The notes: generated by a model not told the origin, from the letters alone. DNA of 64,000 nucleotides from an uncultured Bacillota bacterium (GCA_905204225.1 CAJKZK010000001.1:4506-68505), one strand, 5' to 3'; shown: positions 19,383 through 34,851, counted from the first letter of the stretch. Numbers and translations: made by a program.

Positions 19383-19778
19383 ATGGGTACAATAGGACGT
19401 AAAAATGTTCATGGTAAAGGTGGCGTTCGTTTCAAAGCTGGCTTTACTGCAAGTAAGAACAAATCATTATTAAGAAATTTAGTTACTGATTTAATTCAAT
19501 ATGGCAAAGTAGAAACCACTTTAGCAACTGCTAAAGAATTATCACGTTTAGCTGATCGTTTAGTAACATACGGCAAAAAAGGCGATTTAAATTCACGTCG
19601 TTTAGCTGCAGCAATTGTTAGAAATGAAAAAGCTGGTGATGTCACTGCATTAAAGAAATTATTTGATGAAATTGCTCCATCATATAAAGATCGTAATGGC
19701 GGATATACTTCTGTTTTAAAAACAGGTGTCCGTAAAGGTGATAATGCTCCTACAGCATTAATTACTTGGGTTAAGTAA
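19383..19778 (+). CDS. rplQ: 50S ribosomal protein L17
   Basis: L17 sequence. Confidence 0.95.
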   Translation: MGTIGRKNVHGKGGVRFKAGFTASKNKSLLRNLVTDLIQYGKVETTLATAKELSRLADRLVTYGKKGDLNSRRLAAAIVRNEKAGDVTALKKLFDEIAPSYKDRNGGYTSVLKTGVRKGDNAPTALITWVK

Positions 19779-19792
19779 TTATCTTAATTTGT

Positions 19793-19818
19793 AAAACGCA
19801 CTTCGGTGCGTTTTTATT
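19793..19818 (+). terminator. Rho-independent terminator after rplQ (stem CGCAC/GTGCG, loop TTCG, T-run). This is copy 1 of a duplicated 35-nt element.
   Basis: aaaacgcacttcggtgcgtttttattatgcttaaa, read directly from the sequence. Confidence 0.8.
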
Positions 19819-19840
19819 ATGCTTAAAAATAAAACTTAAT

Positions 19841-19871
19841 TTGACAAACTAGACGGGGGGGGGGTTATAAT
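19841..19871 (+). promoter_or_regulatory. Sigma-A-type promoter with perfect TTGACA (19841-19846) and TATAAT (19866-19871) hexamers and a 19-bp spacer containing a G10 tract (19855-19864)
   Basis: Hexamers and homopolymer read directly. Lies about 25 bp upstream of the LytTR regulator start. Confidence 0.6.
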
Positions 19872-19896
19872 TTTGTTAATATTAATGAGGTGTTTA

Positions 19897-20610
19897 ATGA
19901 TTAGGATTGCTATAGTAGATGATGATACTACCGATGCAGAAACATTAGAAAATATTTTAAAAAAATATGAAAAAGAACATTCTAATGTTAATTTTTACAT
20001 TAAAAAATTTTCTACAGCAATTGCTTTTTTAGATAAATATCAACCATTTGATATAGTTTTTATGGATATTGAAATGCCAACAATGACAGGTATGGAAGCA
20101 TGTTATAAACTAAGAGAAATTGATCAAACAATAGCAATTATATTTGTCACAAATATGGCACAATTTGCAGTTGAAGGTTATATTGTTAGAGCATTTGATT
20201 TTGCAGTTAAGCCAATTAGTTATGGTAATTTGGCGTTAAAATTAGATAGAGTAATAGAGTATATTTCTCATTTTACTGGGAAAATAATACATATTAAAAC
20301 ACCTGAAAAAACATTACAAATTTCTTTAGAAGAAATTATTTATATTGATATTTATAATTATATTCTTACATATCATACTATTAATGATAAAATCGATGTA
20401 ACTACTACAAGCTTATTAGATATAGAAAAACAATTAATAAATTATGGATTTTTTAAAATCAATAGAAGTACAATAGTTAATCTAAAATATATAAAATCTG
20501 TTAAAGATACATTAGTTGATGTTAATGGTAATATTTTAACTTTATCAAGAAGAAGAAAAAAAGAATTTATGGAAAAATTAACAGAATATTTTGGAGAAAG
20601 CAATATTTAA
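19897..20610 (+). CDS. LytTR-family response regulator (receiver domain plus LytTR DNA-binding domain). Start taken at the ATG at 19897 (MIRIAIVDDD).
   Basis: Receiver aspartate context IVFMDIEMP. C-terminal LytTR-like region. RBS GAGG. Confidence 0.8.
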   Translation: MIRIAIVDDDTTDAETLENILKKYEKEHSNVNFYIKKFSTAIAFLDKYQPFDIVFMDIEMPTMTGMEACYKLREIDQTIAIIFVTNMAQFAVEGYIVRAFDFAVKPISYGNLALKLDRVIEYISHFTGKIIHIKTPEKTLQISLEEIIYIDIYNYILTYHTINDKIDVTTTSLLDIEKQLINYGFFKINRSTIVNLKYIKSVKDTLVDVNGNILTLSRRRKKEFMEKLTEYFGESNI

Positions 20611-20611
20611 T

Positions 20612-21964
20612 ATGTCAAATTTATTTTTCTTTAGACCCTTATTTATGTTAGAACTAATTTTAGCAGAAGCAATGTTTCTTTCAAAATTAAATATAAGAAC
20701 TAATTTTTTTATAAGATTGATTATTTCTTTGATTTTTTGCTTTGGTGTTTCTTTTATTTTACCAACAAATTTTGAAAATATTTATTATTATTCTTTTTTA
20801 TTTTTAATAATGTTTTTGGTTACTATTATAGCGAGTATGTTTTGTTTTAAAGCACCTCTTAAAAATATTTTATTTTGTGCAATTGCTGGATATACTATAC
20901 AACATATTGCTTCAGAATGTTATGAAATGTTTAATAATTATATGAACTTGATTATTGAAAAATCATTTAATTTTTATGATGCTGAAGGCACTATTGATAT
21001 AAATGCACAAAATTATTTCTTTTTATTAGTCTATTTTGCTATTTTTGTAATTATTTATGGCTTAGTATATTATTTAATTGTACCTAAAGTTGAAAAATAC
21101 AAAGTTTTACAAACTAACAATAAAGTAATATTATCTTTATCAATTTTTATTGTTTTAATTGATGTTATTATAGGAGCAATAATTTTATTTATTTTACCTG
21201 AAAAATATTTAGTGTCATTATCAAAATTAGTAAAATTTAGTGTATATTTTTTATTACATTTTTATAACATTTTATGTTGTGTTTTAGCAATAGTATTATT
21301 AATTGAGCTACCTCGCCGTAGTAGTGCGGAAAGTGATTTAATAACTGTTAATAAATTATATAAAATAGAACAATCACAATACAATTCAGTAAAAGAAAAT
21401 TTAGATTTAATTAATATTAAATGTCACGATTTAAAGCATCAAATGAGAAATATACTTAATAATAAACAAGTAGACACAAGTGAAATAAATAAAATAGAGC
21501 AAGCAATTGATATTTATGATTCTACATATAAAACAAAAAATGAAGCATTAAATATTGTATTAATGGAAAAAGGGTTAATATGTAAAAAAAATAAAATCGA
21601 ATTAACTTGTATAATAGATGCATCAAAATTATCTTTTATTAAAGATAATGATATTTATTCATTATTTGGCAATTTATTAGATAATGCGATTGAGGCAGTA
21701 AAAAATCTTGAACAAAGTAAAAGAGTAATTAGTTTGCAAATAAAGAATAGTGGAGAATTTTTAATTATAAAAACATATAATAATTATAATGGAAAAATCA
21801 ACTTTGTTAATAATTTACCAATTACAACAAAAGAAGATAAAGATTATCATGGATATGGATTAAAAAGCATTAATTATATTGTTAAATCTTATGATGGACA
21901 AATGAAAATAAAAACTAATAATCAAGTTTTTGATTTGACAATTCTTTTTCAAACAAACAAATAA
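20612..21964 (+). CDS. AgrC/HPK10-like membrane sensor histidine kinase (about 6 TM helices plus GHKL ATPase)
   Basis: N-terminal polytopic region. H-box KCHDLKHQ. C-terminal LLDNAIEA...HGYGL GHKL motifs. Translationally coupled to the upstream response regulator. Confidence 0.7.
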   Translation: MSNLFFFRPLFMLELILAEAMFLSKLNIRTNFFIRLIISLIFCFGVSFILPTNFENIYYYSFLFLIMFLVTIIASMFCFKAPLKNILFCAIAGYTIQHIASECYEMFNNYMNLIIEKSFNFYDAEGTIDINAQNYFFLLVYFAIFVIIYGLVYYLIVPKVEKYKVLQTNNKVILSLSIFIVLIDVIIGAIILFILPEKYLVSLSKLVKFSVYFLLHFYNILCCVLAIVLLIELPRRSSAESDLITVNKLYKIEQSQYNSVKENLDLINIKCHDLKHQMRNILNNKQVDTSEINKIEQAIDIYDSTYKTKNEALNIVLMEKGLICKKNKIELTCIIDASKLSFIKDNDIYSLFGNLLDNAIEAVKNLEQSKRVISLQIKNSGEFLIIKTYNNYNGKINFVNNLPITTKEDKDYHGYGLKSINYIVKSYDGQMKIKTNNQVFDLTILFQTNK

Positions 21965-21968
21965 ATAC

Positions 21969-21999
21969 CATTCACAAGATATAATAAATCATTCACAAG
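21969..21999 (+). promoter_or_regulatory. LytTR-box-like direct repeat: CATTCACAAG at 21969-21978 and 21990-21999, 21 bp between repeat starts, upstream of the 22088 lipoprotein gene
   Basis: Perfect 10-bp direct repeat read directly. This architecture is known for AgrA/ComE/PlnC operators. Confidence 0.5.
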
Positions 22000-22087
22000 T
22001 AAAGTATTTTCATTTCTTTACTTGTTTTTTATTATTAGTTCGCTTATAAAAGCAGTTTTTGTGCTTTTTAAGTAGAGGGAGGAAAAT

Positions 22088-23638
22088 ATGAAAATTAAAT
22101 CAAAACTTTTACTTTTGATTTCATTTATGTTGCCAATTTTTTCGTTAACAAGTTGTAATGAAACTCCTAAACATGTTTGTAATGAACCATGTCCAACATG
22201 TGGAGGTTGTCTTGATAATAAATGTCAAGAAGAAGCATGCTTAACAAAATGTAGTTGTGAAGTAATAGTTAAATCAGTGGATATAACAAGTATGCCGTTA
22301 AAAACAAATTATTATCCAGGAGAGATTTTTTCACCTGAAGGTTTAGTGGTTAAAGCTAATTTATCAAATGGAAAAACAAAAAAATATAGTTATAGAAAAT
22401 TTGATACTTGGACTCATAAGGACGAACCATTAACTGAAGATATTAAAAAAATCACTTTTACAATTCCGAAATATAATTTTGATTTTGATGTAGAGATTAA
22501 AGTTGAATTACCTAATGATTTATCTATTGTTGTTGATAAAAGTTTACTAAAAGAAACATATTTAACTACTGATATTATTGATTTTACAATAATAAATGTT
22601 AGAGCTAAAATTGGTGAAACAATGACTTTGCTAAAAGCTGATCAATGGAAATTATATGATGGTACAAATCTTATCGAAGATAAAACACAGGTAAGTCTAA
22701 GTGAAGGTGAACATTTAATAAAAATTGAATATGTACCAACTGTTGATTATAGTTTTACTTTAAAAATAAATGATCCAAATAATGTTATTTCTCCAGATCA
22801 TGTTGAAGCAGAAGATTGTGTTTATAATATAGACTCAAACGCACCATACACAATTAAAGAAAAAGTTGCAAATGCTCAATATCCTGATGAAAATGGTAAT
22901 TTATCAGATCAATTATTTAAAAAAATACCAAATGGAGCAAGTGGTACAGGAGCAGTTTCATCATTATCTGCATCACAAAATGGTAAGAATGTCTATTTTA
23001 AATTTAATATTAAAGTTCCTACAACTGGCGAATATGATTTATTAGCAAGAGTGCAAGGAACAGGTGAAAATCAAATTAAAAATAATTTTAAAGTTTCTAT
23101 TAATAATGGTGAAGAAATGATTTCAACAAGCACTGATACAATTCATGCTGGTAATCAAATTAAAAATCAATATGGTAAAGAAGGTTTTATTGGTTGGTAT
23201 AACATGTTTTGGTGGAATGTTGTCAATATTGGAACATATTCACTTACAAAAGGTGATAATGAAATAAAAATTACAATGCCAAAAGGATTAGGTGGAAATA
23301 TTGATTATTTTGAAGTTGTAAGTAAAGGTGAAATACATGAAACTCAATTATTTAGTATGAGAGAAGGAAGTAGAGTAAATTTATCAACAAATCCAATTTA
23401 TTTAAAATATGGTGAAAAATTAATAGATAAAGTAGCTACACCAATTGGTCACCCATGTAAATATACATTAATTTATTTAAGACTAGATGATGGTTGTGAA
23501 ATTCCTGTAACTGAAGATTTAATGAACGAAATTGATTATACCAAAACTGGTGAGCAAGAAGTAAATATAACATTTACTAAAAAAGAAAAAACATATAATG
23601 CTTCATTCAAAATAATAATTGAAGCTGAAGAAGAATAG
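22088..23638 (+). CDS. Surface lipoprotein with a Cys-rich N-terminal segment, a CBM6/CBM35-like carbohydrate-binding module and an Ig-like domain
   Basis: Lipobox LTSC. 10 Cys within about 35 aa after the signal peptide. EAEDCVY...GEYDLLARVQG...WWN...NIDYFEV jelly-roll motif shared with the next gene. Confidence 0.6.
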   Translation: MKIKSKLLLLISFMLPIFSLTSCNETPKHVCNEPCPTCGGCLDNKCQEEACLTKCSCEVIVKSVDITSMPLKTNYYPGEIFSPEGLVVKANLSNGKTKKYSYRKFDTWTHKDEPLTEDIKKITFTIPKYNFDFDVEIKVELPNDLSIVVDKSLLKETYLTTDIIDFTIINVRAKIGETMTLLKADQWKLYDGTNLIEDKTQVSLSEGEHLIKIEYVPTVDYSFTLKINDPNNVISPDHVEAEDCVYNIDSNAPYTIKEKVANAQYPDENGNLSDQLFKKIPNGASGTGAVSSLSASQNGKNVYFKFNIKVPTTGEYDLLARVQGTGENQIKNNFKVSINNGEEMISTSTDTIHAGNQIKNQYGKEGFIGWYNMFWWNVVNIGTYSLTKGDNEIKITMPKGLGGNIDYFEVVSKGEIHETQLFSMREGSRVNLSTNPIYLKYGEKLIDKVATPIGHPCKYTLIYLRLDDGCEIPVTEDLMNEIDYTKTGEQEVNITFTKKEKTYNASFKIIIEAEEE

Positions 23639-23648
23639 AGGAAAAAAT

Positions 23649-23780
23649 ATGGAAAAAAATATGTATTACACTCCAATTATAAGTGTAAAGAAAATTAATT
23701 TAGATGATGTAATTTGTGTCTCTTTTGATACAAAAGATGAAAATAACATTTATCAAAATGTTGATGTAACATTGGATTAA
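23649..23780 (+). CDS. Unannotated 43-aa ORF (MEKNMYYTPIISVKKINLDDVICVSFDTKDENNIYQNVDVTLD) with strong RBS AGAGGA, exactly filling the gap between the two CBM-protein genes
   Basis: ATG 8 nt after the RBS. Has a homologue at 33343-33480. No signal peptide. Confidence 0.4.
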   Translation: MEKNMYYTPIISVKKINLDDVICVSFDTKDENNIYQNVDVTLD

Positions 23781-23794
23781 GATGAGGTTATAAA

Positions 23795-26032
23795 ATGAAA
23801 AAATATAATAAATTAATGATATTATCATTATCAATGTTAATGATGATACCTTCAATAATTGTTAATAATGAAAACTCATTAATATGTTCTACAACTGATG
23901 TATTTAATGAAAAAGCACATATTGAAACAAGATTACTTAATCAATTAACTGATACTAATGAAACTGTAAAATGTTCTAATATGTATGTACAATATGGTTA
24001 TGATGGAACTAATTATTATTTAAGATACGCTACTGCAATTAAAGGTGATATTGAAACATTAAATTACAAAATGTTTATTAATGATGAAGAATATATTGCT
24101 GGAGAAAAAAATGCAGATGTTTTATACAAAAGCATATTATCTAATGGTACTAGACAATATTATAATGGTAACGAATTAACAACTACTCCAACTGAATATT
24201 TATGGACTTGCTATACTATAAAATTTGCTAGTGAAAAACATCAAGCAGATAATATAGCTGTTTATTTAAATATAAATAATGCAAACACTGTTTCTAAATC
24301 AACATCATTATTAGAAGAAATGAATGTTGAACCAGATCATATTGAAGCAGAAGATTGTGTTTATTTACTTGAAAATGATAATAAATACACTTTAAGTGAA
24401 GCTTCAGCAAATGCTCAATATCCTGATGAAAATGGTAATTTATCAGATCAATTATTTAAACAAATACCAAATGGAGCAAGTGGTAAAGGTGCAGTTTCTT
24501 CATTATCTAAAGGACAAAATGGTACAAAAGTATATTTTGAATTTACTGTTAACGCTCCAACTTCTGGAGAATATGAACTTTTAGCGAGAGTACAAGGAAC
24601 AGGTGAAAGCTCAATTAATGGATTATTTAATGTAAGTATTAATGGTGAAGAAGGAACTTTAAATACTTCAAATGATAAAATACTTAAAGGTAATCAATTA
24701 AAAGAACAATATAACACATCTAGTGATTATTTGAGTTGGTATAACATGTTTTGGTGGAATATGGTTAATATTGGAACATATTCTTTAAATAAAGGTGAAA
24801 ACACAATAAAAATCACATTGCCTAATGGATTAAGTGGTAATATTGATTATTTTGAAATTCAAAACAAAAATAGTGCAAAAACATCTAAAATTTTCAGTTT
24901 TAGAGAAGGATCAAGAAATGAATTATCAACAAATAATGGATTAACTTTAATTGAAAATGGATTATTATCTGATAAGTCTGGTACTCCAGCAAATCACCCT
25001 TGTAAATATACTTTAATGTATATAAGATTATTAGATGGTAGTGAACACCCAATTACTGAAGAAATGTTAACTAATTATAGTAATATTGATTATACAAAAG
25101 TTGACCAAGAACAAATTGTAACAATTAATTATAAAGAAAATACAGCGTCTTTTAAATTATTTATTGTTAAAGAAAATTATGATATTTATGAAGCAGAAGA
25201 TAATGTTTATAAGTATAAAAATGGAGAAGAAACCACAAATAAATATGCTTCAGTTAACAATTTAACTAATATAGAATATTATGAAAATGAAACATTAAAG
25301 TCAGAACAAACTAAAGATGGCTCAAGCAATAAAAAAGTTATAGCTTTAGGTGCAGGTGCTAGCAATCATGGTAAAGAAGTTTTCTTTAAATTTGAAGTAA
25401 ATGTACAAGAAACAAAAGATTATTATTTATTTTCAAGATTACAATCTTCAAATGAAAATGATTTGATTAATTGTTTTGAAATTAATATAAATGAAGAAAA
25501 AGATGAAAATGGAAAATTAAAATATTATAAAAATAATTATAGTCAAATTCCTTCATTATGTAATCAAACAACAACATTTAATAATGTATGGAATAATGCA
25601 ATGTGGTTTGGTATGGCAAATTTAGGAAAAATTCATTTAACTAAAGGAAACAATATAATTAGAGTTCGTATGCCAAATGGAATAAGTGCGAATATTGATT
25701 TCTTCCAAGTTAGAGAAACAGATTCATTTGGTGCAAATTTATTTACAGTAAGAGATGGATCACATACTAAACTTGATTCATTAACACTTGAAAAAAATCA
25801 AAAAATTACTGATATTATTTCAACTCCTAGTGCACACCCATATCAATATACATTAATGTATTTAAGATTACCAAATGGTAATGAGTATCCTGTTGTTACA
25901 AAACCTAGCGAAGGAACAAATGTAAATTATGTTGGTGTTTTAAGTGATATTGATTATACTTTATCTTCTCAAAAAGTCACCGTTACTAACGGAAATTACA
26001 AATTATCATTTACTTTAAATATAAATTTATAG
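23795..26032 (+). CDS. Secreted surface protein with two CBM6/CBM35-like modules and Ig-like domains (paralogue of the 22088 gene)
   Basis: Signal peptide. Two copies of the EAED...YxLxxRxQ...WxN...NIDxF module, the first closely similar to the 22088 protein. Confidence 0.6.
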   Translation: MKKYNKLMILSLSMLMMIPSIIVNNENSLICSTTDVFNEKAHIETRLLNQLTDTNETVKCSNMYVQYGYDGTNYYLRYATAIKGDIETLNYKMFINDEEYIAGEKNADVLYKSILSNGTRQYYNGNELTTTPTEYLWTCYTIKFASEKHQADNIAVYLNINNANTVSKSTSLLEEMNVEPDHIEAEDCVYLLENDNKYTLSEASANAQYPDENGNLSDQLFKQIPNGASGKGAVSSLSKGQNGTKVYFEFTVNAPTSGEYELLARVQGTGESSINGLFNVSINGEEGTLNTSNDKILKGNQLKEQYNTSSDYLSWYNMFWWNMVNIGTYSLNKGENTIKITLPNGLSGNIDYFEIQNKNSAKTSKIFSFREGSRNELSTNNGLTLIENGLLSDKSGTPANHPCKYTLMYIRLLDGSEHPITEEMLTNYSNIDYTKVDQEQIVTINYKENTASFKLFIVKENYDIYEAEDNVYKYKNGEETTNKYASVNNLTNIEYYENETLKSEQTKDGSSNKKVIALGAGASNHGKEVFFKFEVNVQETKDYYLFSRLQSSNENDLINCFEININEEKDENGKLKYYKNNYSQIPSLCNQTTTFNNVWNNAMWFGMANLGKIHLTKGNNIIRVRMPNGISANIDFFQVRETDSFGANLFTVRDGSHTKLDSLTLEKNQKITDIISTPSAHPYQYTLMYLRLPNGNEYPVVTKPSEGTNVNYVGVLSDIDYTLSSQKVTVTNGNYKLSFTLNINL

Positions 26033-26040
26033 GTTTAAAT

Positions 26041-29000
26041 ATGGAAAAATCACTTTTAAGAAAAGTAATTATTTTACCTTGCATGGCCGTAATATTAGCT
26101 GGCCTTGCAGTAGGTAATTACGAATGTTATATTCATGAAAATGAAATTACATCTCAACTTGTTCCTGCTAAAATAACTTATGATAATTCAAAATTATCAG
26201 AAGCACAAATGGCGGCAGGTAATGTTGTCAATCAAATAGCTCAAGAAGGTATGACATTAATGAAAAATGATGGAACATTACCTTTAGAAATTGATGAAGA
26301 CGATGAAGATGGTTATCCAATCAATTTATTTGGAATAGGAAGTACTGATGCCGAAAATGGCTTTTACTTATTTGGTGGTGGCTCTGGTTCTGTAACTTTA
26401 TATGATAAAGATAAAGTTACTTTACAACAAGGAATTGAACAAGCTGGCTTTGAAGTTAATACTTCCTTACTAAATTTCTTTAAAGAAGAAGGAGAAAATC
26501 CTAAAGAAAGTTGGTGGGAAAAAGAACAAAATATTCTTAAATCAGCAAAAGCATTTTCTGATACAGCTGTAGTAACTATATCAAGATTTACTGGTGAAAA
26601 TTGTGATGCTGATGAAAATACAACTGATCAAACTTCATATTCATTTAGTAAACCTTATCAAGCATCTTATAATGATAATGATTTAGATGGTAGAAATTTT
26701 TGTCAATTATCATTAAGAGAAGAAGCTATGTTAAAGTGGGTTAGCAATAATTTTGGTGAAGTAATAGTTTTAATCAATAGTGGAAACATGATGGAATTAG
26801 GTTTTTTAGACAATCCTAAAATTAATGCTATTTTGTATACTTCATATCCAGGAAAATCTGGAACAAAAGCAATAGGAGATATTCTAGCTGGAAAAGTAAA
26901 TCCAAGTGGACATTTAACTGATACTTTTGTTTATGATACCAAAAGTGATCCAACATGGGCTAATGTTATTGCTAAAAAAGATAATGGTACACAAATTCAC
27001 TATGTAGAAGATATTTATACTGGGTATAGATGGTATGAAACAGCTGACAAAGAAGGATATTTTAATTCTATTGGTAAAAACTATAATGAAGTTGTTTTTA
27101 GACCATTTGGATATGGATTATCTTATACAACATTTGAATGGAATTTTAAAAATATTTCTTTTAAAAATGGTGATACAATTATACCAGCAATTAATGGAGA
27201 TAATGTTAAAGATAAAGATACAAAAATTTTAATTCAGGTTGAAGTAAAAAATACTGGATTAGTCGCTGGTAAAGATGTTGTTCAATTATATTACACCGCA
27301 CCATACACAAAAGGTGGTATTGAAAAAGCGTATGTTAATTTAGTTGCATTTGAAAAAACAGAGATGCTATATCCACTTTCTCAATCAAGTGAAGACAAGC
27401 CGAATAGTCAAATTTTGTCTTTAGAATTTAGCTTGTATGATATGGCAAGTTATGATGCTTATGATAAAAATAAAAATAATTTTACAGGGTATGAACTTGA
27501 AAAAGGTGAATATCAATTAAAATTACAAAATAATGCTCATGAATTAAATAAGTGTGAAAATAGTACTATTAAAATAAATTTAACTAATGATTTAAAATGG
27601 GATAAAGATCCAAATACAAATGGAACTATAAAAAATAGATTTACAGGTTCGACAGCTGAAAACAATATTCCAATTGATGGTAATAATAATGGTGAAAAAA
27701 TAACATATTTGTCAAGAGCAGATTTTTTATCAACATTTCCAAAAACAACTACTCCAAATAGAACTTCAGGAGCAGATTCTACTAAAGATGGAACTTATGT
27801 TACAGATGAAGAATATTATAAAGATATTACAATGCCAACTTTAAATAGTACTGAAACAAATTTATTATTATATACTTTAGAAAATGGTGAAAAAGCGTCA
27901 ACTAATGATTTAAGTGGATATACAAACAATAAAATAATTCCTAACGAAGAATTAATTTTAAAATTAGGTGAAAACTATGATGCACCTGAATGGGAACAAT
28001 TATTGAATCAATTATCATATATAGAAATAGTTGATATTGTTGCTCGTTGTAGTTGTGGAACAGCTCCAGCTGAATCTATTGGAAAACCTAAAACAAGAGT
28101 TTTTGATGGACCTCAAGGAATTAACAATTCAACACTTTCTCCAGAACAATTAGCTGATGTAACTGCATTTCCAGCTGAAACTTTAGTAGGTATGACTTTT
28201 AACAAAGAACTTGCTAGATTAGAAGGTGCGGCAATGGCAACTGAAGCTTCATTAACAGGAACAATAGGAATATATGCTCCAGCAGTTGATTTGCATCGTC
28301 ATGCTTATAATGGTAGAAATTATGAACAATATAGTGAAGATCCTTATTTATGTGGAATTATGGGTGGTAAAATGGCAACAGGTGCTATTACACATGGTTG
28401 TCAAGTCTCTATAAAACATTTTGTTTGTTCTCAACCTGGAAGAAATCCTAGAGACTATAATACATGGTTAACAGAACAAAATTTAAGAGAAAATTATCTA
28501 AAACCGTTTGAAATTGCTATTAAAGAAAGTAAAGCAAATTTCTTGATGACATCATTTAATAACATAGGCGGAGTAAGATGTGCTTATTCTTATCAATTGT
28601 TAAATGGAGTATTAAGAGAAGAATGGGGATTCAAAGGATCAATTATTACGGATTATGATGTTAATAGTGCATCAAGAACTACTGCAAATTTAATTAGATC
28701 TGGTAATGATTTAAGATTCCAAGGAAGTGTTGCTAATAGAGCAGAACTTGATAAAAACAATGTAGTTGATGTTTATTTAGCTAGACAATCTGTAAAAAGA
28801 GACTTATGGTCATTTTGTAATACATATTATAGAACTAAAAATTATGATCCAAATTACACGTCAACAAATGTTATTGTCACTCAACCATTTGTATGGTGGA
28901 TAATGGTAGTAATAATGATAGATGTGATAATTATAGGTGGAATTGGTGTAGGAATTTTCTTCTTATTTAAGCCAAAGAAAAAAGCACTAGTAAATAATAT

Positions 29001-29193
29001 TGAGACAGATAGTTCTCAAGAAAAATCTGAACATAAATTTTTATACAAAAAGAAAGAAAATCTTTCTTCAACTAGCGCTCAAAATGTTGTAATTGATAAT
29101 AACCAAGAAAAATTTTCTATATCAAAAAAAGATTATGAAGAACTCATTGATTTAATTGATAAATTACAAGATAAATTAAAAAAATTAAAATAA
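26041..29193 (+). CDS. Glycoside hydrolase family 3 (beta-glucosidase/xylosidase-like) with permuted domain order and N- and C-terminal TM anchors
   Basis: GH3 C-domain-like region first (MKNDGTLPL, VNPSGHL, FGYGLSYTTF), then GH3 N-domain motifs (KHF, GFKGSIITDYD with catalytic Asp). One TM helix near each terminus. Confidence 0.65.
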   Translation: MEKSLLRKVIILPCMAVILAGLAVGNYECYIHENEITSQLVPAKITYDNSKLSEAQMAAGNVVNQIAQEGMTLMKNDGTLPLEIDEDDEDGYPINLFGIGSTDAENGFYLFGGGSGSVTLYDKDKVTLQQGIEQAGFEVNTSLLNFFKEEGENPKESWWEKEQNILKSAKAFSDTAVVTISRFTGENCDADENTTDQTSYSFSKPYQASYNDNDLDGRNFCQLSLREEAMLKWVSNNFGEVIVLINSGNMMELGFLDNPKINAILYTSYPGKSGTKAIGDILAGKVNPSGHLTDTFVYDTKSDPTWANVIAKKDNGTQIHYVEDIYTGYRWYETADKEGYFNSIGKNYNEVVFRPFGYGLSYTTFEWNFKNISFKNGDTIIPAINGDNVKDKDTKILIQVEVKNTGLVAGKDVVQLYYTAPYTKGGIEKAYVNLVAFEKTEMLYPLSQSSEDKPNSQILSLEFSLYDMASYDAYDKNKNNFTGYELEKGEYQLKLQNNAHELNKCENSTIKINLTNDLKWDKDPNTNGTIKNRFTGSTAENNIPIDGNNNGEKITYLSRADFLSTFPKTTTPNRTSGADSTKDGTYVTDEEYYKDITMPTLNSTETNLLLYTLENGEKASTNDLSGYTNNKIIPNEELILKLGENYDAPEWEQLLNQLSYIEIVDIVARCSCGTAPAESIGKPKTRVFDGPQGINNSTLSPEQLADVTAFPAETLVGMTFNKELARLEGAAMATEASLTGTIGIYAPAVDLHRHAYNGRNYEQYSEDPYLCGIMGGKMATGAITHGCQVSIKHFVCSQPGRNPRDYNTWLTEQNLRENYLKPFEIAIKESKANFLMTSFNNIGGVRCAYSYQLLNGVLREEWGFKGSIITDYDVNSASRTTANLIRSGNDLRFQGSVANRAELDKNNVVDVYLARQSVKRDLWSFCNTYYRTKNYDPNYTSTNVIVTQPFVWWIMVVIMIDVIIIGGIGVGIFFLFKPKKKALVNNIETDSSQEKSEHKFLYKKKENLSSTSAQNVVIDNNQEKFSISKKDYEELIDLIDKLQDKLKKLK

Positions 29194-29198
29194 TTGTA

Positions 29199-29225
29199 TA
29201 AAACGCACTTTGGTGCGTTTTTATT
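29199..29225 (+). terminator. Rho-independent terminator after the GH3 gene. This is copy 2 of the duplicated 35-nt element (one loop base differs from the copy at 19793).
   Basis: aaaacgcactttggtgcgtttttattatgcttaaa, read directly from the sequence. Confidence 0.8.
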
Positions 29226-29365
29226 ATGCTTAAACTAAATATTATAATTTAGAAAAACAAACAAAAGAAATAAAATATGAAATTGTTAAAACTAGTAGTT
29301 ATATTGCAACTGCTGAAGAAATAATTCTTCAACCATTAAATTAATTCAAAAAATTATAAAATTTA

Positions 29366-29394
29366 TTGATTTACTTGTTAAATTAGAATAATAT
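29366..29394 (+). promoter_or_regulatory. Promoter for rplM-rpsI (TTGATT, 17-bp spacer, TAATAT), followed by a leader with hairpin TTGGCActtaTTGCCAA (possible L13 leader)
   Basis: Hexamers and spacing read directly. Confidence 0.45.
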
Positions 29395-29459
29395 ATTTAT
29401 TGGCACTTATTGCCAATTGTAGTCCCGGTAAGACAGACAATTGCAAGGAGATTAAAATT

Positions 29460-29900
29460 ATGCAAAGACAAACAACAATTGCTAATGCTAAAACTGTAAC
29501 ACGTAAGTGGTACGTAATTGATGCAACAAACCTCCCATTAGGACGTTTAGCATCAGAAGTTGCTAGATATTTAACTGGCAAAAATAAAGCTATCTATACA
29601 CCAAATGTAGACTGTGGTGATTACATCATTGTCATTAACGCTGGTAAAGTTGCTTTATCTGGTGACGCTGAATACAAGAAGACATATTATAATGCTTCTG
29701 GTTGGGCTAGAGGAATCAGATCAAGAACTGCTGGAGTTATGAAAAGAGAATTCCCAGTTGAAATGGTTGAAAGAGCTGTTCACGGTATGTTACCTAAGGG
29801 TCGTTTAGGTAGACAAATTGAAAAGAAATTATTTGTCTATGAAGGTAATGAACATAAACAAGTTGCACAAAACCCAGAAGTGTTAACTTTAAAATTCTAG
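29460..29900 (+). CDS. rplM: 50S ribosomal protein L13. Start taken at the ATG at 29460 (MQRQTT), after RBS AAGGAG.
   Basis: L13 sequence. The track ORF is extended upstream. Confidence 0.93.
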   Translation: MQRQTTIANAKTVTRKWYVIDATNLPLGRLASEVARYLTGKNKAIYTPNVDCGDYIIVINAGKVALSGDAEYKKTYYNASGWARGIRSRTAGVMKREFPVEMVERAVHGMLPKGRLGRQIEKKLFVYEGNEHKQVAQNPEVLTLKF

Positions 29901-29912
29901 GAGGAATGAACA

Positions 29913-30314
29913 ATGGCAAAGAAAAAAGAAGTCAAATACTATGGCACAGGTCGTAGAAAATCATCTATCGCTAGAGTTTATTTAGTTCCTGGAAAAGGTG
30001 CTATTACAGTAAATGGTCAAGATGTTAATAACTATTTACCACATGCAACACTCGTTATGGATTTAAAACAACCACTTGAATTAACTGGAACAACTGAAAG
30101 ATTTGATATTATTGCAACAGTTACTGGTGGTGGATTTACAGGCCAAGCTGGTGCATTAAGATTAGGTATTGCAAGAGCTTTACTTGAAGCAAGCCCTGAT
30201 TATCGTGCTCCATTAAAAGTAGCAGGTATGTTAACAAGAGATTCTAGAGCTAAAGAAAGAAAGCACTATGGTCTCAAAAAAGCAAGACGTGCTCCACAAT
30301 TCTCAAAACGTTAA
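29913..30314 (+). CDS. rpsI: 30S ribosomal protein S9
   Basis: S9 sequence ending ...KRAPQFSKR. Confidence 0.95.

Positions 30315-34774: not shown

Positions 34775-34851
<77 letters not shown>

Follow-up and report, generated by a model that had tools for sequence, protein, structure and literature searches.

The question raised by this locus is what occupies the space between two ribosomal protein genes, rplQ and rplM, and how it came to be there. The locus lies in a 64,000-nt stretch of DNA from an uncultured Bacillota bacterium (GCA_905204225.1 CAJKZK010000001.1:4506-68505; hereafter the window, with positions counted from its first letter), in which a block of 9.4 kb follows directly behind rplQ. 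A preliminary description of this DNA had noted that a terminator element is duplicated at the two ends of the block, and took this as a hint that the block had been inserted or recombined at the site, in the place of ecf and truA genes. Comparison with contigs of the same species, whose flanks are ~98% identical, bears out the hint: the block is an accessory, strain-variable insert with its boundaries marked by the two terminator copies, T and T'. We propose, with a probability of roughly 0.6, that the gap between T and the rplM promoter is a neutral slot in which cassettes are gained, lost and exchanged, and that the allele present in the window (allele A) carries, between T and T', a glycan module that is switched by a poly-G promoter and regulated by a LytTR-type system. 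The landmarks of the slot are the following.

19383-19778, + strand: rplQ (ribosomal protein L17), last gene of the S10-spc-alpha super-operon (Pfam Ribosomal_L17, E 6e-33)
19789-19831, + strand: T, predicted intrinsic terminator of rplQ, a 43-nt segment (TTGTAAAACGCACTTCGGTGCGTTTTTATTATGCTTAAAAATA) enclosing the 35-mer at 19793-19827 and duplicated in full in allele AB
29194-29234, + strand: T', second copy of the terminator segment, right-hand repeat and predicted terminator of the island operon (35-mer at 29200-29234)
29236-29344, + strand: 3' remnant of a lipoprotein gene (last ~35 codons and stop), aligning to the 3' end of the lipoprotein genes of contigs L009 (10532-12403) and L034; the gene is intact in alleles B, AB and D
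29366-29900, + strand: promoter/leader of rplM and rplM itself (29460-29900), right border of the slot (Pfam Ribosomal_L13)
29913-30314, + strand: rpsI (Pfam Ribosomal_S9)

The 35-nt element, AAAACGCACTT[C/T]GGTGCGTTTTTATTATGCTTAAA, occurs exactly twice in the window, the second copy beginning at 29200, one base later than previously given (29199), and had no match in 100 shuffles of the sequence. As first described, the two copies differ at a single loop base (C versus T; 34/35 identical). Both are intrinsic-terminator-like, with a 9-bp stem, a 4-nt loop and a T-rich tail (TTTTTATTAT); folding energies are -11.3 kcal/mol for T and -12.9 kcal/mol for T' (z-scores -3.2 and -3.9), and they start 14 nt past the stop codon of rplQ and 6 nt past that of the last island gene, respectively. 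Among strains the loop is variable (TTCG, TTCA, TTTG, TTTAT) and the stem constant, which fits selection for the hairpin as a terminator; T and T' are predicted to be rho-independent terminators, each ending the unit upstream. The possibility that the 35-mer is a genome-wide repeat was ruled out by pattern scans of GTDB species genomes and JGI metagenomes, which found it at the rplQ-rplM locus only. Within the GTDB species genomes it matched a single 4.9-kb contig (L011), from 'uncultured Mollicutes bacterium UMGS1395'; this species representative is a fragmented metagenome-assembled genome, and as the contig ends just past a poly-G tract, the number of elements counted there is a lower bound. 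At least 12 independent metagenome samples, put together by different assemblers, yield contigs in which this block lies between the same two copies, and the arrangement is therefore not an assembly artefact.

Four alleles of the rplQ-rplM gap are present in the species, which we designate A, B, AB and D. Allele A, that of the window, was found in L001-8, L010 and L021-23, always with both terminator copies. In allele B (L009) rplQ is followed by one T, a promoter, a single gene for a 623-aa lipoprotein and rplM, and collinearity with the window stops at 19831 and resumes at 29236; the UMGS1395 contig is also without the block and has a single terminator copy. Allele AB, seen in two samples (L034 and L035), has the order rplQ, T, island promoter (Pisl), island, T', lipoprotein promoter (Plipo), intact lipoprotein gene (L034 10001-11860), rplM. 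The sequence after T' in AB is exactly that which follows T in strains without the block, comprising the promoter and intact lipoprotein gene of allele B, so that L009, with one T running directly into the post-T' sequence of L034, displays an intact empty site. The direct repeats at the island borders measure 35 nt in the window and 43 nt in AB, where the full repeat reads TTGTA[A/T]AAACGCACTTC[G/A]GTGCGTTTTTATTATGCTTAAAAATA (L034). Allele D (L032/L033) consists of T, the lipoprotein promoter and gene (L032 10001-11875), a 5.4-kb restriction-modification block, most of T' and the same lipoprotein remnant as in A. The block (L032 12132-16949) encodes an ApaLI-like restriction endonuclease, an N6/N4 methyltransferase, an HTH controller, an HTH_38 protein and two other open reading frames (ORFs).

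The remnant at 29236-29344 indicates that the window allele is AB with a deletion: judged from the alignments, allele A is AB minus a stretch that begins directly behind T' and reaches into the final ~35 codons of the lipoprotein gene, and what the window allele has truncated is by the same comparison that lipoprotein gene, not ecf or truA. The T'/remnant junction of allele A is present also in allele D. A microhomology (AAATATT) on both sides of the deletion junction in A is not claimed, as there are 2-3 extra bases at the junction and the motif is common at 25% GC. In a distance matrix of the left flank the contigs form three subclades, and the island allele occurs in all three; island-less alleles lie 0.6-0.7% from island-bearing ones and are interleaved with them. 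Since the island allele is found in every subclade with island-less alleles nested close by, the content of the slot either changes repeatedly or recombines within the species.

The module that fills the slot in allele A is made up as follows.

19841-19871, + strand: Pisl, candidate phase-variable promoter (TTGACA at 19841-19846, 8 nt, G10 at 19855-19864, T, TATAAT at 19866-19871)
19897-20610, + strand: response regulator of 237 aa, receiver plus LytTR domain (Pfam Response_reg 7.7e-18, LytTR 6e-13; gene call in L001)
20612-21964, + strand: AgrC/ComD-like membrane histidine kinase of 450 aa with a GHKL domain (Pfam HATPase_c_5 1.4e-25)
21970-21999, + strand: candidate LytTR-type operator, a perfect 9-bp direct repeat, ATTCACAAG-N12-ATTCACAAG, between the kinase gene and SP1
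22088-23638, + strand: SP1, a 516-aa lipoprotein with a signal peptide ending LTSC, a Big_3 Ig-like domain, a putative CBM6/35-like module and a C-terminal beta domain
23649-23780, + strand: ORF of 43 aa, called in every island contig, no Pfam match
23795-26032, + strand: SP2, secreted, 745 aa, with two putative CBM6/35-like modules (sub-threshold sequence matches, model)
26041-29193, + strand: GH3, 1050 aa, membrane-anchored, with hydrophobic segments at both ends (Glyco_hydro_3_C at aa 71-329, 6.5e-25; Glyco_hydro_3 at aa 704-873, 1.4e-30)

By Pfam, this gene content agrees with the earlier account of a LytTR regulator, a kinase, two surface proteins and an anchored GH3, which had missed both the poly-G promoter and the LytTR operator. 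The G10 tract in Pisl is the only run of more than five G in the 64-kb window, and is followed by a GAGG ribosome-binding site and the ATG of the regulator at 19897. Across 14 sequences (the window, L001-8, L010, L022, L034 and L035) the tract is G8, G9, G10, G11 or G12, lengths taken from assembly consensus, which gives spacers of 17-21 nt; contigs with 800-nt flanks that differ at 1-2 positions differ by 1-2 G. The lipoprotein promoter, Plipo, reads TTGACA-9 nt-G10-12-TAAGAT. Two further examples come from the lineage at 91% RpoA identity, TTGAAA-10-G7-TATGAT with a 17-nt spacer (L014 13337) and TTGACA-9-G9-TAAGAT with an 18-nt spacer (L015 4128), both preceding surface-protein or membrane-protein genes downstream of rplQ; poly-G promoters in this relative indicate that the design is clade-wide. 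Four independent promoters in three lineages share the layout TTGACA-N8-10-Gn-TAnnAT, and every run of at least seven G or C in the loci scanned (L001-L036) falls in such a promoter site. A tract that lies in the -35/-10 spacer, is over-represented and is polymorphic in length is as expected of a phase-variable promoter, and the G-run of Pisl probably switches the island on and off at random.

The candidate operator lies upstream of a possible -10 element (TATTAT, 22030-22035) and of SP1; it is the only such match in the window and is invariant in 12 island contigs. At the corresponding position an orthologous module (L024) carries ATTCACTAG-N12-GTTCACAAG, and another (L027) a different 12-mer repeated with the same 21-nt period. 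The classical LytTR binding site, as known for AgrA, ComE and PlnC/D, is a pair of 9-bp direct repeats 12 bp apart; the sequence at 21970-21999 fits this layout and may well be the target of the island's own regulator. Ahead of the promoter of the regulator gene no such site was found. The kinase has a hydrophobic N-terminal half and an H-box (HDLKH), and with the regulator it makes up what, by domain content, appears to be a LytTR/HPK10-type two-component system.

Divergence among strains is concentrated in the sensor half of the kinase (window 20283-21480) and in the N-terminal part of SP2 (24183-24480). The sensor half falls into two allelic types with ~89-94% identity (L002, L034 and L035 versus the rest), and the N-terminal part of SP2, at 84-88% identity, is the most variable stretch of the island. 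Phase variation of the kinase by frameshift was considered and rejected: the short gene calls are due to a nonsense mutation (an in-frame stop in L006), a scaffold gap (L035) and a different start call (L034). SP1 is 56% identical to residues 158-460 of SP2. The 43-aa ORF has no recognisable leader and no family match; a 41-aa ORF with a similar start (MEK...) lies in a related lineage (L015 4176-4301), before a Big_2 surface-protein gene and behind a poly-G promoter. The GH3 protein has both catalytic domains in permuted order, an order shared by 120/120 among the matches listed from more than 7900 homologues, each with both domains. It is 99-100% conserved among strains, the nearest protein from outside the species being 68% identical, and ends in a charged tail of ~85 aa.

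The k-mer or GC deviation of 19.8-29.2 kb that had been raised as a check on insertion is absent, and we reject a foreign composition for the island. Its tetranucleotide profile correlates at 0.97-0.99 with the remaining non-ribosomal sequence of the window, and its GC3 of 0.08-0.11 is as elsewhere in the window (~0.1 throughout); the step in GC at 19.8 kb is there because the GC-richer ribosomal operon ends at that point. A plasmid or phage origin was likewise set aside, megablast giving no match to plasmid or phage records. Orthologous modules comprising a LytTR regulator, a kinase, a Big_3-like surface protein and a permuted GH3 occur at unrelated sites in other Bacillota, organisms of 38% and 48-54% GC, with GH3 identities of 68% and 59%. 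On this comparison the module is a conserved functional unit that lies behind rplQ only in this species.

We propose the following account of how the island is controlled, reasoning from sequence features and from the behaviour of related systems. The G8-12 run in the spacer of a sigma-70-type promoter would change length by slipped-strand mispairing, shifting the spacer between ~17-18 nt (active) and 19-21 nt (weak or off), and tract length would in this way stochastically set transcription of the LytTR regulator and the AgrC-like kinase. Upon a signal, the phosphorylated regulator would bind ATTCACAAG-N12-ATTCACAAG and activate SP1, the 43-aa ORF, SP2 and GH3. The most likely logic is thus two-tiered, with the poly-G promoter gating the sensor-regulator pair and the activated regulator then turning on its target genes. 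The output would be two surface CBM6/35-like glycan binders and a membrane-anchored exo-glycosidase, presumably directed at a glycan substrate, and T' would halt transcription ahead of the rplM promoter, insulating rplM. As for its origin, allele AB may have arisen directly, DNA carrying a copy of T having integrated by recombination at T (Campbell-like) or by some other duplicative insertion; AB would then have given rise to A by deletion, and B would be either the state before insertion or a product of recombination between T and T'.

For the duplication of the terminator our order of preference is Campbell-like or other duplicative insertion, then tandem duplication with replacement, then a site-specific recombinase acting on the hairpin. 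Under tandem duplication, the unit T-Plipo-lipoprotein would have been doubled, after which the first copy was replaced by the island (AB) or the second truncated (the T'-remnant arrangement of A and D), leaving T' as a by-product. Allele D, in which one locus combines an intact lipoprotein gene with T' and the 3' end of a second such gene, is most simply obtained from two tandem copies, and the TTGACA-N-Gn-TAnnAT design common to Pisl and Plipo agrees with this; but the two promoters share no sequence beyond that motif, no allele with two intact lipoprotein genes is present among the contigs examined, and more steps are needed than for insertion with duplication, and we regard this course of events as unlikely. 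It is very doubtful that the island is instead a present or past integrative element, with the terminator hairpin as att site, T and T' as attL and attR, and a tyrosine or serine recombinase encoded elsewhere or lost. A 43-nt direct repeat exactly at the island borders, unchanged downstream sequence in AB, polymorphism of the island among close strains and a slot which also accepts other mobile DNA (the restriction-modification block and HTH_38 gene of allele D) are all features that such an element would have. However, no integrase, excisionase, recombinase or transposase was found in the island or elsewhere in the 64-kb window (Pfam, ORFs scanned), the island matches no plasmid or phage and has the composition of its host, and its cargo is a chromosomal-type regulated operon which in other taxa occupies ordinary chromosomal sites. 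A bolder version makes the hairpin the recombination site of a cassette-exchange platform behind the ribosomal super-operon, on which a trans-acting recombinase captures, excises (T x T') and exchanges between strains units made up of poly-G promoter, genes and T copy. This is a long shot; if true, it would give a genome-reduced gut lineage something like an integron, stocked with surface and foraging functions that are each phase-variable.

Whether the G tract is a switch at all can be questioned separately. It might be a mutational or technical oddity, the island being constitutive or regulated by signal only, and the duplicated terminator an ordinary recombination scar that does nothing but terminate. 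Homopolymer lengths are error-prone, those from short reads can be off by ~1, and part of the G8-G12 spread could be technical; moreover most tracts (G10-G12) give spacers of 19-21 nt, predicted to be poor, yet the genes are intact and GH3 is 99-100% identical among strains, which would mean either a promoter that is mostly off or an imperfect assignment of the hexamers. Against this, in DNA of 25% GC a run of at least eight G would hardly be maintained if it were not selected for, and the tract, unique of its kind in the 64 kb, is carried by every strain; the design is found again at four promoters from three lineages, each time with the same two hexamers on either side, and tract length differs by up to 2 nt between contigs with near-identical flanks. 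We therefore consider the absence of a real switch distinctly unlikely. These uncertainties over tract length and spacing nevertheless weigh against the slot-and-switch reading that we prefer, as do several other observations. No recombinase gene, within the scope just given, and no circular form of the island were found. Deletion from AB to B and insertion from B to AB both fit the data, and allele D cannot be derived from the other alleles in one step. In the module no AgrB-like gene, exporter or pheromone peptide was found for the AgrC-like kinase. Finally, the 'CBM-containing' label given to the surface proteins is plausible, not proven: the module shared by SP1 and SP2 matches CBM-like Pfam families at E ~0.002, below the curated cutoff, and the CBM35 structures 2w47/2w1w in the PDB at E ~0.02, and in a Foldseek search with an AF2 model of low confidence (pLDDT 59.6) most of the top PDB hits, the best included, were CBM35/CBM6 (E to 5e-7, TM ~0.5 on the target). 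A CBM6/35-like fold is thus a plausible assignment for this module, from sub-threshold matches and a low-confidence model.

The host is an uncultured, very AT-rich (window ~25% GC) human-gut lineage of 'Mollicutes'/Bacilli, with UMGS1395 as its GTDB representative; an identical L17 protein is encoded on many human-gut metagenome contigs, and records of relatives carry the label 'Bacilli bacterium'. In the Bacillus-type order, known from B. subtilis, rplQ is followed by ecfA, ecfA', ecfT, truA, rplM and rpsI. The ecf and truA genes are indeed missing here, ecfA, ecfT and truA being absent from the whole 64-kb window and, at this site, from every allele of the species. A relative at 84% RpoA identity has, in order, rplQ, an LRR_5 surface protein, a dCMP deaminase, ecfA, ecfA, ecfT, truA, PHP, YebC, one more gene and rplM, which indicates that the Bacillus-type order once existed in the clade; in relatives at 96% and 91% RpoA identity other genes follow rplQ, and the rplQ-rplM linkage is broken. 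The synteny comparison thus upholds a strain-variable block, with island-less conspecifics that have a single terminator, and does not uphold its replacement of ecf/truA: because island-less alleles are without these genes too, their loss or relocation predates the island, and we reject their direct displacement by it. Of the Bacillus-type arrangement, this species retains the proximity and common orientation of rplQ and rplM-rpsI, but each of its alleles is without ecf and truA at the site.

Some further features of the flanks may be noted. In the 84% relative (L017-L020 11366-11660) the first gene after rplQ encodes the LRR_5 (BspA-like) surface protein, and in the region upstream of it the lengths of poly-T/poly-A runs and the gene-start calls vary between contigs. 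The rplM leader is conserved in all alleles, and at 29366-29459 it contains two hairpins (TTGGCA...TGCCAA and CAATTG...CAATTG). Rfam has no family at this leader, the L13 leader included; only a tRNA passed the gathering score, and the sole sub-threshold match near rplM, of T' to an sRNA terminator, was judged to be due to chance.

The lipoprotein family of the slot comprises only 25 clusters at E <= 1e-5, with identities from 98% down to 33%, a hypervariability suggestive of a surface antigen under diversifying selection. Its more distant members (36% and 52% identity) occur at other genomic sites in other organisms. Near the end of contig L011 (4760-4880) the sequence departs from every other allele once the lipoprotein promoter (G12) and a shared leader of ~40 nt have been passed. 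Either the contig here enters another cassette, or the assembly broke at the poly-G tract. A second strain-variable island of 24.7 kb lies at 34921-59673 of the window, beside a tRNA gene (34775-34848). The conspecific contig L009 is without it, the tRNA region there running straight into zinc-ribbon/Band_7 genes (window 59674 onward); a long direct repeat was looked for at the borders of this second island and not found. Its cargo includes an ABC sugar transporter, Big_2 surface proteins, GH127-like and rhamnosidase-like enzymes, AraC/PocR regulators, a fucose-isomerase-like protein, an FGGY kinase, DUF4432 and a class II aldolase.

Uncultured, genome-reduced 'Mollicutes'/Bacilli lineages are common in human guts, and to our knowledge almost nothing is known of them experimentally. 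In one of them the present locus is a hot spot, differing in gene content between co-circulating strains, and has two candidate contingency promoters of a kind otherwise known from pathogens (Neisseria, Mycoplasma). If the proposed mechanism is correct, poly-G gating of a sensor-regulator pair would let a commensal hedge its bets on carbohydrate foraging and on surface exposure. Each of the mechanisms involved is of a known kind; what is new is the host lineage, and that a two-component system controlling a glycosidase module is here combined with a contingency promoter. There are also two lessons for annotation, namely that foreign DNA should not be inferred from a drop in GC beside a ribosomal operon, and that duplication of a terminator can be read as the footprint of an insertion only after alleles have been compared.

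Among known systems, the island resembles the genomic islets found at hot spots in being strain-variable, in lying between core genes, in its direct repeats and in the alternative cargo found in the same slot; it differs from them in having no integrase, no tRNA target and no compositional signature, and in that the repeat is a predicted intrinsic terminator. The literature searched contained no paper tying rplQ/rplM to an integration hot spot. With AgrCA, ComDE, PlnBCD and BlpRH the module shares a receiver plus LytTR regulator, a polytopic HATPase_c_5 kinase, two 9-bp repeats 12 bp apart and, here, allelic divergence in the sensor half, which is reminiscent of pherotypes. Unlike in those systems, the module is without a peptide precursor bearing a recognisable leader, AgrB or an ABC exporter, and what it is predicted to regulate is a GH3 and proteins that bind glycans, whereas toxins, competence genes or bacteriocins are the targets there.

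The closest parallels to the switch itself are repeats in promoter spacers, such as the poly-A tract of vlp in M. hyorhinis and the TA repeats of Vmm in M. mycoides (PMC10502178), and the poly-G of porA and poly-C of opc in N. meningitidis, as cited in PMC5084427. In the literature searched no paper linked RF39-like gut lineages to phase variation. What is common to porA, opc, vlp, Vmm and the present locus is a hypermutable repeat between the -35 and -10 elements of a surface-protein promoter, polymorphic in length among close strains. The host here differs in being an uncultured, genome-reduced gut commensal in which we infer switching from sequence, and one of the two units that would be switched differs in being a two-component system set over an operon of GH/CBM genes rather than a single antigen gene.

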